UHGV virus genome: UHGV-0046228
Reading direction: 5' to 3' (one strand)
Source of the DNA: a virus
DNA: 11,963 nt
The position numbers and the translations under genes are program-made. A model generated the notes under the pieces. That model saw only the letters and a list, made by a program, of their open reading frames with translations, ran no database searches and had not been told where the DNA came from. The first letter of the stretch is position 1; every line of letters begins with the position of its first letter. Shown piece after piece: positions 1 through 11,488 of the stretch.

Positions 1-385
1 CCGGAACAGCACCGGGGTTCGGCGTCTTCAGCGTGGTCGAGCTGGCAAAAGCACCGGAGCCAACGTTATAGGTGAAGGAGTAAAGCGCGGCGCGGGTTGG
101 CTCAGGGATGCGAACCTTGATCAGCGGGTCGATGGCGCTTGCCACCTTTCGCAGATCTGCCTTAAGCAGGTTGTCACACTCTTTGTCGGTATATCGGTGA
201 CCGCGGCGAATGTCGGTACCAGTGTGCCCATCGCAAACGGTCCAGACGCCGACCACATCCTGATAGGCGTAATAACGCCGACCTTCGAGTCCATCCGCAT
301 TGCCCAGCATTACTGCAGCAATGGTGATGGCTCCGGACCCGCCAACGATGGCACCCACCAGCTTATTCCTCAACGTTGGGTTCAT
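1..385 (-). CDS. SAR endolysin (signal-anchor-release lysozyme, phage 21 R-like), N-terminal 128 codons; C-terminus lies beyond the window start
   Basis: Manual reverse-complement translation from ATG at 385..383: [128 protein letters not shown]. Gly/Ala-rich weakly hydrophobic N-terminal SAR-like segment followed by a lysozyme-like E...D/C...T core; start overlaps the upstream holin by 23 nt in another frame. Absent from the ORF track because no stop lies inside the window. Confidence 0.85.
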
Positions 386-587
386 CTCGGCTCCTGCTGC
401 GGCGGTTGTCTTCGCGGATTTTGAAATAGAGATTTGTCAGATACGTCATTACGGCAATGATGATACCCACCAGCACGCCGATAGCGTTCCACTGCTCGGG
501 GCTGTAGGCATTAAGCATGCCGTTTAGGATGCTCCCGGCTGAAGCGCCATAGGCAGCACCAGTGGTTAGTTTGTCCATGCGATACAT
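363..587 (-). CDS. Class II holin (pinholin, phage 21 S-like) with dual-start motif
   Basis: 74-aa [22 protein letters not shown]...[15 protein letters not shown]; begins Met-Tyr-Arg-Met (two starts separated by a basic residue), two hydrophobic segments, charged C-terminal tail; SD GAGGTGA upstream; immediately precedes the SAR endolysin. Confidence 0.85.
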
Positions 588-621
588 ACTCTCACCTCGC
601 TTTGTGCGAGTGCTGTTGCTA

Positions 622-650
622 GGAATAAAAAAGGCCGCCGAACGGCAGCC
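622..650 (-). terminator. Intrinsic terminator-like hairpin about 35 nt upstream of the holin start
   Basis: Minus-strand reading GGCTGCC-GTTC-GGCGGCC followed by TTTTTTATT; 7-bp GC-rich stem with one G-U pair. Confidence 0.5.
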
Positions 651-848
651 TTGTATTGATTGATAGTTTCCGGAGCTTCTTTCTCGCTAGGAAAGCAAAA
701 AATTAAACAATCCTTAAGAATAGCCAGTTGATGCAAAAAATAATTAGCTTTTCAAATAGTTTTTAGCTGTTACCATTTCCACTAAGTTATGGCTTTACCT
801 CTTTGTGGATAAAAGAAAGACAAGCGGGTATGAGATTGAGTCGTTATT

Positions 849-910: not shown

Positions 911-942
911 AATAAAAAAAGCCCAAGGCGTTAACCTCGGGC
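911..942 (-). terminator. tR'-like intrinsic terminator downstream of the late promoter
   Basis: Minus-strand reading GCCCGAGG-loop-CCTTGGGC (8-bp stem with one G-U pair) followed by TTTTTTTATTTCTTT; about 120 nt downstream of the Q stop. Confidence 0.6.
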
Positions 943-959
943 TTGAATTTTTTTGGCTT

Positions 960-1065
960 CGGAACGACTGAACGGATTCCCAGCGTTAGAGATGAATCTA
1001 TCCAGTTTTTCCGCGAAATGCAATACCTATTTCCTATATATTTTCAACATTAGGGAAAATTATTT
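960..1065 (-). promoter_or_regulatory. Inferred late promoter (pR'-like) and Q-utilisation region
   Basis: AT-rich non-coding stretch between the Q stop (1066-1068) and the tR'-like terminator; minus strand has TTGAAA (1047..1042) and adjacent TATATA (1040..1035), but no clean -35/17 bp/-10 pair was found. Placement rests on position. Confidence 0.35.
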
Positions 1066-1875
1066 TCATCTCGTTACTTTTGAGAGAATGGAATCAGCCA
1101 TAGACTCCTGTTTATGGCATTCGGCGACCAACTCCTCAAATAGCGGCTGAAGTTGCTCATATGCCGCCGTTTTCTTTATCTCCGCAACAGTATTAACGCC
1201 CTCAATTACCGTTGAGAACTTAAGCCTGGCGTAACCTCTACCACCGCAGCGGTCGCAGGCTTTCATTACTGGAACGCCCTGGCGATCGCTTTCTGCCTTG
1301 TCCAGCACCTTACCTTTGCCATGGCAGCGACACGAATTGCTGATAACGCCTTTTCCGTTACACGGCTTGCACTTAACTCGCACCACCTCACGCGCCTGTG
1401 TCCAGCTCTCCCAGTCGCTTGGGCGAACGGCACGCGACATTTTCGACCAGTAAGGCGGTTTCCCCCATGGGTATGAGACCTTGTTGGTAAACACTTGCGC
1501 CTCTGTAAATCCGCCACCATCACAGCAATCACATTTTCGAGTGCTGGCAGCACTTCTTGAATAATCCTGGTATGCAAAAGCGCAGAGAACCTTAAGCACG
1601 CCTGACCGAGCTGATTCATCGAGTTCAGACAGTGCTCTGAATTTACCTGATAACTTACGTGCCTGCTCATAGAGTCTCTCCAGTGCTATATCTGGGCTGC
1701 TAATGCCGATTTTCGAGAGGTAAAGATCGAAACCAAACCCGCACTTGTGGCCAGCAAGGCCAAGCGCCGCCATAACGTCAGTGCCGGTGAGACTGTCTGA
1801 TGCGGTTGCGCGAGGAGAGTCACTGAACATCGGTGATTTAGGCGCAAAGTATTTAGCGATTGATTCGAGGTTCAT
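1066..1875 (-). CDS. Late-gene antiterminator Q-like protein
   Basis: 269-aa ORF directly upstream of the late promoter/terminator and lysis genes and downstream of nin genes; C-terminal half carries paired Cys motifs (KCKPCNGKG...CRCHGKG, CDRCGGRG) typical of Zn-binding Q-family antiterminators. Family assignment is from recall. Confidence 0.7.
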   Translation of the reverse strand: MNLESIAKYFAPKSPMFSDSPRATASDSLTGTDVMAALGLAGHKCGFGFDLYLSKIGISSPDIALERLYEQARKLSGKFRALSELDESARSGVLKVLCAFAYQDYSRSAASTRKCDCCDGGGFTEAQVFTNKVSYPWGKPPYWSKMSRAVRPSDWESWTQAREVVRVKCKPCNGKGVISNSCRCHGKGKVLDKAESDRQGVPVMKACDRCGGRGYARLKFSTVIEGVNTVAEIKKTAAYEQLQPLFEELVAECHKQESMADSILSKVTR

Positions 1876-4317: not shown

Positions 4318-5070
4318 TCACTTCACCTTCCACTGCGGTGCTGCTGCAATCATCGCGCGGTATGCAGCCTGCATGTCGTTGTCATCATCGTCTGTGTACG
4401 GAGCCGAATCCCATGCTGCACGCATATCCGGAGTAAGCTCAACCGGCACCATCACCCAACCATCAGGAATCACCGGAGAGTTGCCACCCTGAACAGTAGG
4501 CATATCCGGACCTTTGCGAATCGCCCTGGCAAGATCGATTTGGTCGTCGTACAACCAGTCACCTGTTTGCGGATGATTGGCTTCTGCCAATTGTGCAGCC
4601 CACTCCAGGCCGTCTTTGTGTCCTTGCAGATAGTCCAGCGGTAACTCATCACTATTACTTACAGGTTCGGCCTGAAGCATGGCGGCGCGATAGGCGTTCC
4701 AGCCGACAGCTTTTCCGTGTTCAAACGCGCTGTCAAAGTCATCATCAATTTCCATCGCAGCGGGCACAGATACCGGCGCTGGCGGGGCGGTGTAGAGCGG
4801 CATTACCTCAATATTGAAGATATCCCCCTCGCTTGGACACGCCTCTGCGCTACCGTAAACCCAAGGGTGAACGACTCCGTTACGCTTGTTGATTAATCTG
4901 TGCGCCCACGCCACAGGCTCCGCTTCGAGCGATGCCAGCGCGATACGCGCATTATTAATCAGGAGGCTATCAGCAGGAGATAAAACAACATGAGCGTTAC
5001 CCTCCGCATCAATTTCAGAATTCGTAATTTTTCTGAACAGCTTTGCCAGTTCTCTGGTAATAGTGCTCAT
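4318..5070 (-). CDS. Hypothetical phage protein (250 aa), acidic
   Basis: Long ORF with ATG at 5070..5068, GGAG 8 nt upstream, ATGA overlap with the upstream ORF stop; acidic runs (EIDDDFD, YTDDDDNDM); no family recognised. Confidence 0.7.
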   Translation of the reverse strand: MSTITRELAKLFRKITNSEIDAEGNAHVVLSPADSLLINNARIALASLEAEPVAWAHRLINKRNGVVHPWVYGSAEACPSEGDIFNIEVMPLYTAPPAPVSVPAAMEIDDDFDSAFEHGKAVGWNAYRAAMLQAEPVSNSDELPLDYLQGHKDGLEWAAQLAEANHPQTGDWLYDDQIDLARAIRKGPDMPTVQGGNSPVIPDGWVMVPVELTPDMRAAWDSAPYTDDDDNDMQAAYRAMIAAAPQWKVK

Positions 5071-5345
5071 GGGCGAATCTCCGTCCTGCCACCAAGTAAG
5101 CGGATTGCCACTCGTTCCCGGAAGGTAAGCGGTCGATGGTGTCCGCGGGCATTAACAATTTCAGGCTTTCCATTAGGCGGATAATTGACCCTGACCGATT
5201 GACCATCTAGCGCGTGAGAAGCCTCGAGTAGTGCTGACTTTAAGTGCGCAGGGCACTCTTTCTGCACCCGCTCGCCGTCTGAAATGACACCTGCAATCCC
5301 CTGAAGCATGCTGGCTAAATTGCTGAGATAATTTTTCACATTCAC
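5067..5345 (-). CDS. Hypothetical protein (about 90 aa); start uncertain
   Basis: ORF-track start at 5345 is a GTG only 1 nt after AAGGAG; GTG at 5339..5337 has better spacing (7 nt). Stop overlaps the start of the 250-aa ORF (ATGA). Confidence 0.5.
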   Translation of the reverse strand: MNVKNYLSNLASMLQGIAGVISDGERVQKECPAHLKSALLEASHALDGQSVRVNYPPNGKPEIVNARGHHRPLTFRERVAIRLLGGRTEIRP

Positions 5346-5692
5346 TCTCCTTTACCGGTGCCATAGGCAGATAAGCACTCTTCAAATCCAGCCTGATTAT
5401 CCGTTTGACCTAAACTGAAGCCATGCTGAAGACCATGACGAAATGCGCTATCTTGCAATTTATCTGCGCTATCGAGCTTCGCTTCCAGTTCAGCAATCCG
5501 CTCCTCATACCGAGCGCCAACGGAAACGGCTTTATGGAAGGCTTCGCACCATTTGGACGATTGCGCCTGCATCTTCTCCAGCTCATCCAGCAGCTCCAGC
5601 ACGTCGCGAGTGGGAACCATGAAGTTCGGAATGAAGTTATCTTTCGCTTTCTCTGCTGTTAGGCGCAGCGCCTGTTTGTCGATGTTGCTCAT
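5342..5692 (-). CDS. Hypothetical protein (116 aa) with central coiled-coil-like segment
   Basis: ATG 5692..5690 overlapping the stop of the upstream ORF (ATGA); charged heptad-like region ERIAELEAKLDSADKLQD; no family recognised. Confidence 0.6.
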   Translation of the reverse strand: MSNIDKQALRLTAEKAKDNFIPNFMVPTRDVLELLDELEKMQAQSSKWCEAFHKAVSVGARYEERIAELEAKLDSADKLQDSAFRHGLQHGFSLGQTDNQAGFEECLSAYGTGKGE

Positions 5693-5949
5693 TGGGCGGC
5701 TCCTTCTGTGCGATACATCATGATTGTCAGATCGCCTTTAGTCGCCAGGCGCACCGTTGTTCCTGGTTCGATGCTGGACAGGTCAAACGCATCGTAAAAT
5801 TCGTTTACTGCCTTCTGTCTACGAGATAGCTTTCTACGCTTATCCCACTGCTTTAGCGCAATGGAGATAAACCACTGGCCCGTTTTGAACATGATGAATA
5901 ACCACCCCATCAGAGCGAGACCAGTGTTTAGAATGTCCAGAATGCTCAT
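5689..5949 (-). CDS. Hypothetical small membrane protein (86 aa)
   Basis: ATG 5949..5947 with AAGGAG 7 nt upstream; N-terminal hydrophobic span LALMGWLFIMF followed by a basic stretch. Confidence 0.6.
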   Translation of the reverse strand: MSILDILNTGLALMGWLFIMFKTGQWFISIALKQWDKRRKLSRRQKAVNEFYDAFDLSSIEPGTTVRLATKGDLTIMMYRTEGAAQ

Positions 5950-6041
5950 GACTGCACTCCTTTGCGAAGCTGTGCGGCGATGTCTTCGAGTACTCCATCA
6001 GCGAAGGAGCGATCAAAATCCCCCTCTGGCGCATCAGCCAT
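5946..6041 (-). CDS. Small acidic hypothetical protein (31 aa), translationally coupled
   Basis: Manual translation MADAPEGDFDRSFADGVLEDIAAQLRKGVQS; stop TGA overlaps the ATG of the 86-aa ORF (TCATGA); no obvious SD, so it rests on coupling only. Confidence 0.3.
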   Translation of the reverse strand: MADAPEGDFDRSFADGVLEDIAAQLRKGVQS

Positions 6042-6044
6042 AAA

Positions 6045-6569
6045 CTATGTAGATGTGAGAATCATCCGTGCGATGTCTGCCGAGATCTTCGCAGTATCAT
6101 CAATAAAACCAGCTTCCCAGGCAGCCAGCATTCTGTTAGACACAAAGTAAGCGCCCTCCTTGCGTGCTTCAGTCTTCACTTCAGCCAAGAAAGCGTCGGT
6201 GGCTGTGGTTCGCGGCATCCTTCCATCTATTGCGCAGATATACGCATCAGATAGTTCACCCTGCTCGCCGTCAAACACGTAGCAACTCTGTACGATAAAT
6301 TTATTCAGCCCCGCATTCTCCGCCGCCAGCTCCCTGCACTTGCTCTCGGCGTTAGCGAGCTGTACTGCCATGTCTGTGACTTCGGCTTCAAGTTTTTCAG
6401 CATATTCAATCAGGAGATCGATTCTTTCCGGCGTTACGGTTTTAACGTATTTGCAAATCGATGACGCATAATTATCATCCTGGAGTGTGCCAGCCAGGCC
6501 ATTACAAAATTTGCGGTTCCCTTTTGTCGCCTTGATATCGGCGATGATTTTTTTAACATCTGGTTTCAT
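6045..6569 (-). CDS. Hypothetical phage protein (174 aa) with coiled-coil-like centre
   Basis: Preferred start ATG 6569..6567 (MKPDVKKIIADIK...) making an ATGA overlap with the ren stop; the track's longer N-terminus would overlap ren. Confidence 0.6.
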   Translation of the reverse strand: MKPDVKKIIADIKATKGNRKFCNGLAGTLQDDNYASSICKYVKTVTPERIDLLIEYAEKLEAEVTDMAVQLANAESKCRELAAENAGLNKFIVQSCYVFDGEQGELSDAYICAIDGRMPRTTATDAFLAEVKTEARKEGAYFVSNRMLAAWEAGFIDDTAKISADIARMILTST

Positions 6570-6865
6570 GCTGACACCCTCCCGTAAAACGCCAGTACAC
6601 GCTGCATCGCCGGACTGTTTCGGCACTCCTGAAATATTCCGTTGGTGCAGCTACGCGCGGTACCAGCCTGCTCTTCCGGCGTAGCCAGGCGATAAGTCAC
6701 CGTTCGCCAGACCTTGCTCACCCGGATAATTTTTCGAGACTTTTCCAGATCGATAGCGTTCTTCGTGATGCAGTTGATGGTCATGCCGCACTCTGTGGCC
6801 ACATCCTTCGCGGTGAAGGTCCGGTGCGTTTCGAGATAACGCAGAATTGCCTGCTTGCCTTTCAT
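6566..6865 (-). CDS. ren: Ren-like protein (lambda Ren, resistance to Rex exclusion)
   Basis: 99-aa translation MKGKQAILRYLETHRTFTAKDVA...KVWRTVTYRLATPEE...FQECRNSPAMQRVLAFYG is co-linear with lambda Ren as recalled; ATGA overlap with the P stop; sits directly after P as in lambda. Confidence 0.8.
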   Translation of the reverse strand: MKGKQAILRYLETHRTFTAKDVATECGMTINCITKNAIDLEKSRKIIRVSKVWRTVTYRLATPEEQAGTARSCTNGIFQECRNSPAMQRVLAFYGRVSA

Positions 6866-10391: not shown

Positions 10392-10583
10392 GCGCTATGA
10401 GATCAGGCATCCTCGTTACTTTGTCATGTGTGACAGCCTGGTATGCACTCTGCGAGCTTTGATGTGGTTTACCACTTTAATAGTCACCGTATCACTAAAC
10501 TGATTAGCTTTACTCATACTCTTGTGGATTCGCTATTTCTGATGTCAATGCAAAAAAATACTAAGGAAACAAAAAGGATACTT

Positions 10584-10850
10584 ATGTCAGATAACACTAT
10601 TAAAATCATACCTCAGCACATGACCGCCACATCAGTTCTTATTACGCCTGATCGTGCTGAAACAATCATTACTTTTCACCGCCATGAATTTGAGCATCAC
10701 ATGCAGTCTGATGAGCAAGGAAAGAATAGCTTCCAAGTAAAAGTTGAGTTGACCCCTAACATGTCAGTCTCAATGAGCCCGGATCAAGCTGTTGCATTAG
10801 TAAAATCATTACAGGTAGCTCTCAGGGATAATGGGCTATGGAAAGACTGA
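10584..10850 (+). CDS. Hypothetical protein (88 aa), first gene of the AT-rich module
   Basis: Preferred start ATG 10584 (MSDNTIKIIPQHM...) with AAGGA 5 nt upstream; the longer track ORF (from 10443) lacks an SD. His-rich segment FHRHEFEHHMQ; stop overlaps the next gene's start by 13 nt. Confidence 0.5.
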   Translation: MSDNTIKIIPQHMTATSVLITPDRAETIITFHRHEFEHHMQSDEQGKNSFQVKVELTPNMSVSMSPDQAVALVKSLQVALRDNGLWKD

Positions 10851-11488
10851 AGCCAGTTTCTTCAGTTCAACCTACCTCAGGAACAACATCATCAGTTCTT
10901 CCAAGTATTATAGTTAGTGCAACCCTAGCAGCGACAACCGTTTCTCCTTATGGGGATCCATCTCAGTACCAAAGTATTGGTATTGATGCTAAGGTATCAA
11001 ATAGAGTTTCATACGCCATGGACGAAACGGGTTTGCGCCCAAGTAAGGAAGATGTAGCGATGAAGAGTGATACCCTGGAGGTAAGCGTGAGCGGAATGTC
11101 CAGAGAAGAACTTGACGCAAAGCTTTCACAAAACAAATCAGAGGTAGAGTCTATTGCTGCGGAAATGCGTCGCGAATCAGCTGACTTTAAAACCTATTAT
11201 ACTCAGCAATTTTCTTCTATTGAGAGAGGTATTGCTGAAATTAAAGGTGAAATCGGCGGTTTGAAAACGGGACTTACAACGACTCAGTGGGCGATGGCCG
11301 TTGGCTTGACTTTAGTTACTGTGATTCTGTCTGGCGTGATGTTAGCCTCAAGTTGGATTATCTCCGGCAATGACAAGTCACCATCAGTAACCAGCCCGGC
11401 TCCAATTATAATACAGGTACCGACACAGCAACCATTAACGAGCGCTCCAACTAACCAATCGTCATCACAACAAGCTCCTAAGCAATAA
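10838..11488 (+). CDS. Coiled-coil protein with C-terminal transmembrane anchor and Ser/Thr/Pro/Gln-rich tail (216 aa)
   Basis: Charged heptad-like region (SREELDAKLSQNKSEVESIAAEMRRESADFKTYY...ERGIAEIKGEIGGLKTGL), a single ~23-residue hydrophobic span (WAMAVGLTLVTVILSGVMLASSWII) and a low-complexity tail; AT-rich codon usage unlike the flanking phage genes; intrinsic terminator directly after the stop. Confidence 0.6.
   Translation: MERLKPVSSVQPTSGTTSSVLPSIIVSATLAATTVSPYGDPSQYQSIGIDAKVSNRVSYAMDETGLRPSKEDVAMKSDTLEVSVSGMSREELDAKLSQNKSEVESIAAEMRRESADFKTYYTQQFSSIERGIAEIKGEIGGLKTGLTTTQWAMAVGLTLVTVILSGVMLASSWIISGNDKSPSVTSPAPIIIQVPTQQPLTSAPTNQSSSQQAPKQ

Follow-up and report, generated by a model that had tools for sequence, protein, structure and literature searches.

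Does the pair of overlapping lysis genes at the left end of UHGV virus genome UHGV-0046228 (a stretch of 11,963 nucleotides, hereafter the window) encode a pinholin together with a SAR endolysin, or a lysis system of another kind? A preliminary description, made from the letters alone, had read the pair as a pinholin with a dual start and a membrane-tethered lysozyme. Our analysis supports this interpretation at the sequence level, and we consider it highly probable that the window opens on the start of a phi80-like late lysis cassette in which an S21-type pinholin and a SAR endolysin would carry out lysis in the style of phage 21. Within this reading, gene structure, family membership, the number and character of the hydrophobic segments, the catalytic motif, the conserved double start, and the synteny are direct results; the pinhole size, the use of both holin starts, the exit of helix 1, and the release and activation of the enzyme would follow from homology to phage 21.

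Organization of the lysis genes and relation to phi80

Both lysis genes lie on the minus strand, which the preliminary description had not named. Their layout in window coordinates is as follows.

592..598, minus strand: Shine-Dalgarno GAGGTGA, 4 nt 5' of the first holin ATG (sequence)
363..587, minus strand: holin gene read from Met1, giving the longer, 74-aa product (putative antiholin), which starts M1-Y-R-M4 (100% identical to phi80 gp18; PF04971; phrog_20)
363..578, minus strand: holin from the second start, Met4, 71-aa putative active pinholin, counterpart of S21 68 (ATG at 578-576)
395-391, minus strand: endolysin Shine-Dalgarno AGGAG, 5 nt before the lysozyme ATG and within the holin gene (sequence)
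363..385, minus strand: overlap of 23 nt between the holin 3' end and the endolysin 5' end (ORF coordinates)
1..385, minus strand: SAR-type endolysin (T4-lysozyme-like muramidase), first 128 of ~164 codons (PF00959, phi80 gp19, RrrD, PDB)

The holin ORF comprises 74 codons and a stop codon at 365-363, with ATG codons at 587-585 (Met1) and 578-576 (Met4). The lysozyme ATG is at 385-383, the nearest in-frame stop lying 18 codons upstream with no start codon in between. Since the lysozyme frame stays open to base 1 without a stop, the gene is cut by the window edge with ~36 codons missing, and its stop is expected ~110 nt beyond the left edge of the window. The 23-nt overlap of the two genes (385..363) was correctly called from the outset; phi80 (JX871397, 42627-42649) and six other loci share it, and a Klebsiella phage has almost the same DNA across this stretch. 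In DLP12 the corresponding overlap is 1 nt, a difference explained by the longer holin tail here.

The first 1100 nt of the window are 98.5% identical to coliphage phi80 (JX871397), in which gene 18 is annotated as holin and gene 19 as lysozyme, and DH5alpha, DH10B, TOP10, and other strains carry the same DNA, also at 98.5% identity. The likeness to the 18/19 ('LysN') locus of phi80 (Lula; JX871397 / NC_021190) extends to the same Q gene, the same pR', both terminators, and the 23-nt overlap. Because only about half of the 12-kb window matches phi80, the element is a mosaic phi80-like lambdoid prophage and not phi80 itself. Its other genes encode a cI-like repressor, Cro/YdaS-like, YdaT-like, O-like, and lambda-P-like proteins, NinB, a phosphatase, NinG, Lar, and Q.

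Two further stretches of the window were noted on the way. The region from the P-like replication gene to NinB (4318-6626, minus strand), which has no phi80 match and marks a mosaic region, holds ORFs of 250, 92, 116, 86, and 193 aa, mostly without a Pfam match, the exceptions being DUF4752 and a weak Ead/Ea22 match. Past the cI-like repressor (10443-11488, plus strand) lie ORFs of 135 and 216 aa without a Pfam match; the product of the 216-aa ORF, which has a hydrophobic stretch (AMAVGLTLVTVILSGVMLASSWII) near its C terminus, could be a membrane protein that the lysogen expresses.

Late control region upstream of the holin gene

The order in phi80 is gene 17 (Q), pR', the Q site, two terminators, holin, lysozyme, and Rz. 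The control elements that precede the lysis genes in the window are the following.

1066..1875, minus strand: Q-type late antiterminator driving the lysis cassette (PF03589, E 1.3e-34; phrog_127; phi80 gene 17)
911..1023, minus strand: late promoter pR' and first terminator (phi80 annotation transferred onto 98.5% identical DNA)
623..652, minus strand: second late-leader intrinsic terminator, just 5' of the holin gene (9-pair stem and T run; annotated in JX871397)

Within pR', the -35 element TTGCAT occupies 1023-1018, the Q site 1016-1010, and the -10 element TAGATT 1000-995, and a terminator scan placed the first late-leader terminator at 944-919 followed by a T run and the second at 652-631. 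The two terminators are separated by ~260 nt of AT-rich DNA (653-918) in which no gene is annotated in phi80. No tRNA and no Rfam family was found in the spacer between Q and the holin gene; Klebsiella phage ST13-OXA48phi12.5 carries a tRNA-Asn and a tRNA-Ser (1624-1869) at the inter-terminator place.

Two-helix structure and phage 21 S family membership of the holin

The resemblance of the holin to phage 21 S, proposed earlier from the translation, was confirmed. By sequence it is a clear member of that family, matching PF04971, 'Bacteriophage P21 holin S', in Pfam with 87.6 bits against a cut-off of 26 bits (E 5.4e-25, profile positions 1-62/64). It is assigned to phrog_20, holin, in PHROGs, and is 100% identical to phi80 gp18 and 55% identical to DLP12 EssD. 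Neither the holin nor the phi80 spanins are represented by a model in NCBIfam, and a PDB match of the holin to a designed repeat protein was rejected as spurious, no stretch passing alone. A tblastn search of the phage records with the holin matched 9 records, phage 21 not being among them; since phage 21 was not found in this collection, EssD and RrrD of DLP12, the cryptic prophage of K-12 (MG1655), served as the phage 21-type reference. Three parts of the holin can be told apart.

507..569, minus strand: TMD1, residues 7-27, weakly hydrophobic, charge-free, and SAR-like (hydropathy)
423..491, minus strand: TMD2, residues 33-55, strongly hydrophobic, with G37xxxG41xxxA45 and TYLTNLYF (hydropathy, homologues)
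366..422, minus strand: charged cytoplasmic C-terminal tail (sequence)

The preliminary description had named a holin with three transmembrane domains as contrary to its reading; a hydropathy scan found two segments, like in EssD. The charge-free segments are exactly two (residues 7-30 and 32-55; in EssD likewise 7-28 and 31-58), and a third transmembrane helix is impossible because all sequence past residue 55 is charged. The best 19-residue window of TMD1 (residues 7-25) has a mean Kyte-Doolittle value of 0.82, 63% Gly/Ala/Ser/Thr, and no charges, comparable with TMD1 of EssD, while that of TMD2 (residues 35-53) reaches 2.13; the Hessa values in the hydropathy script are approximate and serve as a rough second scale only. 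The net positive charge in the membrane-proximal part of the tail fits a location of the C terminus inside the cell, and the overall charge distribution suggests an N-in, C-in orientation.

Conservation among homologues is concentrated in helix 2 and its flank. Among the 120 homologues listed (66-100% identical), the GxxxGxxxA motif is conserved in 108 and TYLTNLYFK in 112. The juxtamembrane block is identical to that of EssD, and the N-terminal block is also common to both proteins. Altogether, the pair S21 (68/71)/R21 of phage 21 and the pair EssD/RrrD of DLP12 (PDB 3HDE, 3HDF, 4ZPU) belong to the same Pfam families as the window pair and share the two-helix holin, at 55-57% identity to EssD/RrrD. 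The differences from these relatives lie in both helices: in the aligned columns of helix 2, EssD has GxxxSxxxG where the window holin has GxxxGxxxA, and helix 1 is 3 residues shorter than in S21 and EssD, without the YWFLQW patch. This form of helix 1 (507-569), which also contains two Asn residues, is that of the phi80-type holin in general. The YWFLQW aromatic patch of S21 68 contributes to stable pores (10.1101/2021.04.20.440580), and the shorter, patch-free, Asn-containing helix 1 of the phi80 type may therefore behave differently from that of S21.

Could the gene instead encode a canonical class II holin that opens large holes and is merely paired with a secreted endolysin, so that the membrane is permeabilized non-specifically and not by nanometre pinholes? 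The size of a hole is not readable from sequence, and the departures of helix 1 from S21 (the missing aromatic patch and the 3-residue deletion) leave some room for this view. We nevertheless regard it as very unlikely, because the protein is a clear S21 family member (PF04971), because its helix 2 and juxtamembrane block is identical to that of EssD and a small-xxx-small-xxx-small motif is conserved, and because its partner is a SAR-type lysozyme in all related loci compared. Moreover, electrophysiology showed that TMD2 of S21 68 is necessary and sufficient for conductive pores (10.1101/2021.04.20.440580). Pinholes of about 2 nm, which depolarize the membrane yet hold back a cytoplasmic endolysin, are a feature defined by experiment for S21 68 (PMC9636201).

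Double start of the holin gene

The Met-Tyr-Arg-Met dual-start motif that had first drawn attention to the gene is present as M1-Y-R-M4, and its arrangement is conserved in relatives. In 105 of 120 homologues listed, a (D/E/K)K motif is preceded by two Met codons spaced two or three codons apart, and in 99 of those 105 the Met codons flank an Arg or Lys; where the spacing is three codons, Arg occupies position 3 in 96 of 99. Position 2, on the other hand, is variable and can be any of seven residues (Y, L, I, H, N, F, or S). That Met1, Arg3, and Met4 are conserved while position 2 varies argues for selection and not mere relatedness.

With EssD and S21 the window gene shares an M-x-x-M double start with a basic residue in between and the same Shine-Dalgarno spacing. 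The Shine-Dalgarno/start block GCGAGGTGAGAGTATGTATCGCATGGA is unchanged in a Klebsiella phage that has diverged in the upstream DNA, and the layout GCGAGGTG-N5-ATG-N6-ATG is also found in DLP12 essD, whose product begins MKSMDK; the basic residue is Arg3 here and Lys2 there. RNA folding around the double start was no better than in shuffled sequences (z 0.48), so that no lambda-like sdi stem-loop can be claimed.

In phage 21, S21 68 and S21 71 are the products of such a double start, the extra positive charge of the antiholin altering its topology (PMC9636201), and a mutational study found that N-terminal positive charge delays the flipping of TMD1 (10.1101/2021.04.20.440580). By comparison, the dual start of the window gene would yield a longer putative antiholin with an extra Arg, and both starts are probably used.

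A SAR-type endolysin downstream of the holin

The lysozyme fragment matches PF00959 in Pfam (97.6 bits, E 8.5e-28) and is 96% identical to phi80 gp19 and 56% identical to DLP12 RrrD; NCBIfam lysozyme matches remained far under their cut-offs. Its closest solved structures are PDB 4ZPU (RrrD; E 6e-37) and PDB 3HDE (E 3e-36), which we take to be phage 21 R and to which RrrD (4ZPU) is nearly identical across the aligned stretch. Both alignments begin at residue 1 and span the hydrophobic N terminus of the lysozyme, in contrast to that of PDB 2ANV (a 146-residue chain), which begins only at query residue 34. Two features within the fragment bear on its type.

296..361, minus strand: SAR domain, residues 9-30, with R6 and K8 before it (hydropathy, published criteria)
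239..286, minus strand: catalytic triad E34-X8-D43-X5-T49 (translation, alignment)

SAR endolysins are recognized by an E-X8-D-X5-T triad and by 2-3 basic N-terminal residues followed by ~20 charge-free, weakly hydrophobic residues, the definitive test being release by a pinholin (PMC9239132). The window enzyme has R6 and K8, then a segment of 22 charge-free residues (mean Kyte-Doolittle 1.71, 55% Gly/Ala/Ser/Thr), and the E34, D43, and T49 columns are invariant in an alignment with phi80, a Klebsiella phage, and RrrD. The claim of a Gly/Ala-rich, SAR-type N terminus holds up, both by these published sequence hallmarks and by the alignment with 3HDE/RrrD from residue 1. A soluble N terminus, which the preliminary description had listed as contrary evidence, is not what hydropathy indicates: the maximal mean Kyte-Doolittle value in the first 35 residues is 2.09, compared with -0.24 for the cytoplasmic lambda R used as control. 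The Klebsiella and DLP12 homologues also retain the SAR-type segment.

The same segment might be read as a cleavable Sec signal peptide cut after G28-N29-A30, in which case the lysozyme would be secreted in soluble form and would be subject to a different kind of control. With G at -3 and A at -1, the site does fit the signal-peptidase rule, and the holin-free lysis by gp19 described below is compatible with either model. In phage 21 R, however, the SAR segment remains uncleaved and refolds into the active enzyme, which we count against cleavage here. In addition, the hydrophobic stretch of 20-22 residues reaches the putative site without a polar c-region, the catalytic Glu34 would come to lie four residues from the new N terminus, the entire N terminus aligns with the full-length 165-residue chain of 3HDE, and both the Klebsiella and the DLP12 homologues have kept the segment. 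Processing by signal peptidase thus appears extremely improbable, and an uncleaved SAR domain is the reading that we retain.

SAR endolysins are divided into a refolding type and a disulfide-caging type, and the modification of P1 Lyz works through a Cys in its SAR domain. Unlike P1 Lyz, the window endolysin has no Cys in residues 1-30, and its C51 and C70 are invariant columns common to RrrD. Judged on these positions, the enzyme would be of the refolding type without a SAR Cys and not of the disulfide-caging type of P1 Lyz, the SAR domain of which is modified by the periplasmic Dsb system (PMC9239132). It shares with P1 Lyz and Mu gp22 a weakly hydrophobic anchor at the N terminus that is free of charges and follows basic residues, and with Mu gp22 the E-X8-D-X5-T triad (PMC9239132); Mu gp22 requires a releasin, Mu being without a holin (PMC9239132). 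R21 and RrrD are likewise SAR lysozymes, have the triad and the two Cys positions in common with the window enzyme, and precede Rz/Rz1.

Lambda provides a comparison from outside this group. Its lysis genes also follow Q and pR', use the double-start principle, overlap, and are followed by Rz/Rz1. The lambda holin S105 is a three-helix class I holin that makes micron-scale holes (PMC9636201), and in the S105/S107 system the R transglycosylase is cytoplasmic and without a hydrophobic N terminus, unlike the window lysozyme. A lambda-type pair of class I holin and cytoplasmic endolysin was rejected for the window genes, since the holin has two segments only and the endolysin N terminus is hydrophobic.

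Functional data exist for the phi80 enzyme. When phi80 gp19 ('LysN') was produced from pBAD without other phage genes, it lysed MG1655 and BL21(DE3), both given as strains without the phi80dlacZ prophage (PMC6715736); lysis by gp19 alone is the behavior expected of a self-exporting endolysin. As far as searched, the paper makes no mention of a SAR domain. It also places potential RacR-binding motifs upstream of phi80 gene 19 (lysN) (PMC6715736). The stretch listed there as carrying these motifs differs by 2 synonymous mismatches from window 502-557 (minus strand, in the holin gene), which suggests a possible internal promoter giving endolysin without holin.

Variant patches in the endolysin gene

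Relative to phi80, the window carries six synonymous changes in the SAR stretch and five amino acid changes in the last 12 residues. The latter belong to window bases 1-35 (minus strand), where 7 substitutions fall within 27 nt compared with every relative examined, resulting in five amino acid changes in 9 residues (TLKTPNPGA versus LLKKLNSGD). The positions concerned are conserved from phi80 to DLP12, reading STLL(K/R)K(L/I)N-GD in phi80, a Klebsiella phage, and RrrD, so that the last 12 endolysin residues in the window set this copy apart from all relatives at sites that are otherwise conserved. The changes may reflect low sequence quality where the contig ends, a private allele, or decay.

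A second patch, in the SAR-coding DNA (308-332), holds six substitutions in 25 nt compared with phi80, all of them synonymous, a pattern that resembles recombination with a different allele while purifying selection acted. For the 46-, 35-, and 26-mers of both patches, no exact match was found in the genome, viral, and metagenome contig collections; among E. coli complete genomes, the closest was 96.5% identical over window 1-400.

These observations raise the question of whether this copy of the cassette is decaying, with an endolysin damaged near the window edge and a prophage that is no longer lytic. The five changes that fall within 9 residues, at sites otherwise kept all the way from phi80 to DLP12, would fit such a loss, as would an allele that was not found in any collection scanned. 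Against this, the reading frame runs uninterrupted to the window edge, the intact holin does not differ from that of phi80, the endolysin gene outside the edge stretch differs from phi80 by synonymous changes only, and clustered changes at the end of a sequence are also typical of low-quality contig ends. We therefore consider decay quite improbable.

Spanin genes expected beyond the window

The preliminary description had expected Rz/Rz1-like genes just beyond the window start. By synteny only, Rz/Rz1 are expected ~107 nt to the left of the window. Rz (PF03245; 152-154 residues) starts 4 nt before the lysozyme stop in phi80 and in six distinct loci with an identical holin, and the order Q, holin, lysozyme, Rz is found in 7 related loci. 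The phi80 annotation places Rz at 43118-43576, after the lysozyme, with Rz1 embedded at 43338-43523, and phi80 is listed among the embedded two-component spanins (PMC6139136). The spanin arrangement of Klebsiella phage ST13-OXA48phi12.5 (2757-3968) is unlike that of phi80: the gene after the lysozyme (116 aa) is annotated as hypothetical, and a separate 'Rz1 lytic protein' follows ~700 nt further on.

Proposed lysis pathway and significance

We propose the following model, based on the pinholin/SAR mechanism described in review PMC9636201 and on the phi80 annotation. Transcription from pR' on the minus strand would yield the late transcript through Q-dependent read-through of the two terminators. 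Translation from Met1 would give the form with the extra Arg (putative antiholin) and translation from Met4 the active holin, both helices being initially in the inner membrane by analogy with S21; the two holin forms and the tethered lysozyme would build up there. The weakly hydrophobic helix 1 would then exit the bilayer, allowing helix 2 to oligomerize into small pinholes that would depolarize the membrane and collapse the proton-motive force. Meanwhile, the signal-anchor of the lysozyme would direct its export by Sec, leaving the enzyme tethered and inactive on the periplasmic face. Upon depolarization, the SAR domain would leave the bilayer, and the enzyme would refold and cut the murein, after which the Rz/Rz1 spanins would break the outer membrane.

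A variant of this model, which we put forward tentatively and hold to be rather unlikely, is that the phi80-type holin represents a distinct pinholin sub-type whose helix 1 is never stably inserted or exits much faster, with timing shifted to the Arg3 antiholin; and, separately, that the endolysin could be produced alone from a promoter at 557-502, in line with the RacR activation reported for phi80dlacZ strains.

The two genes are already known: GenBank lists them as holin and lysozyme of phi80, and the mechanism is that of phage 21 in the textbooks. Extending the pinholin and SAR endolysin labels to phi80 gp18 and gp19 is a routine step; in the papers examined that mention both phi80 and pinholins, we found no explicit naming of the two proteins as such, phi80 appearing only in spanin family tables in one and only the unrelated phage phi80-18 in another. 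The call of a pinholin with a SAR endolysin, originally made from sequence only, was sound. The cassette serves as a marker for the late-gene end of a phi80-like prophage; the assignment matters mainly for correct annotation. Beyond this, gp19 acting as a self-exporting SAR lysozyme may explain the toxicity of its stray expression (PMC6715736) in the widely used cloning strains DH5alpha, DH10B, and TOP10.
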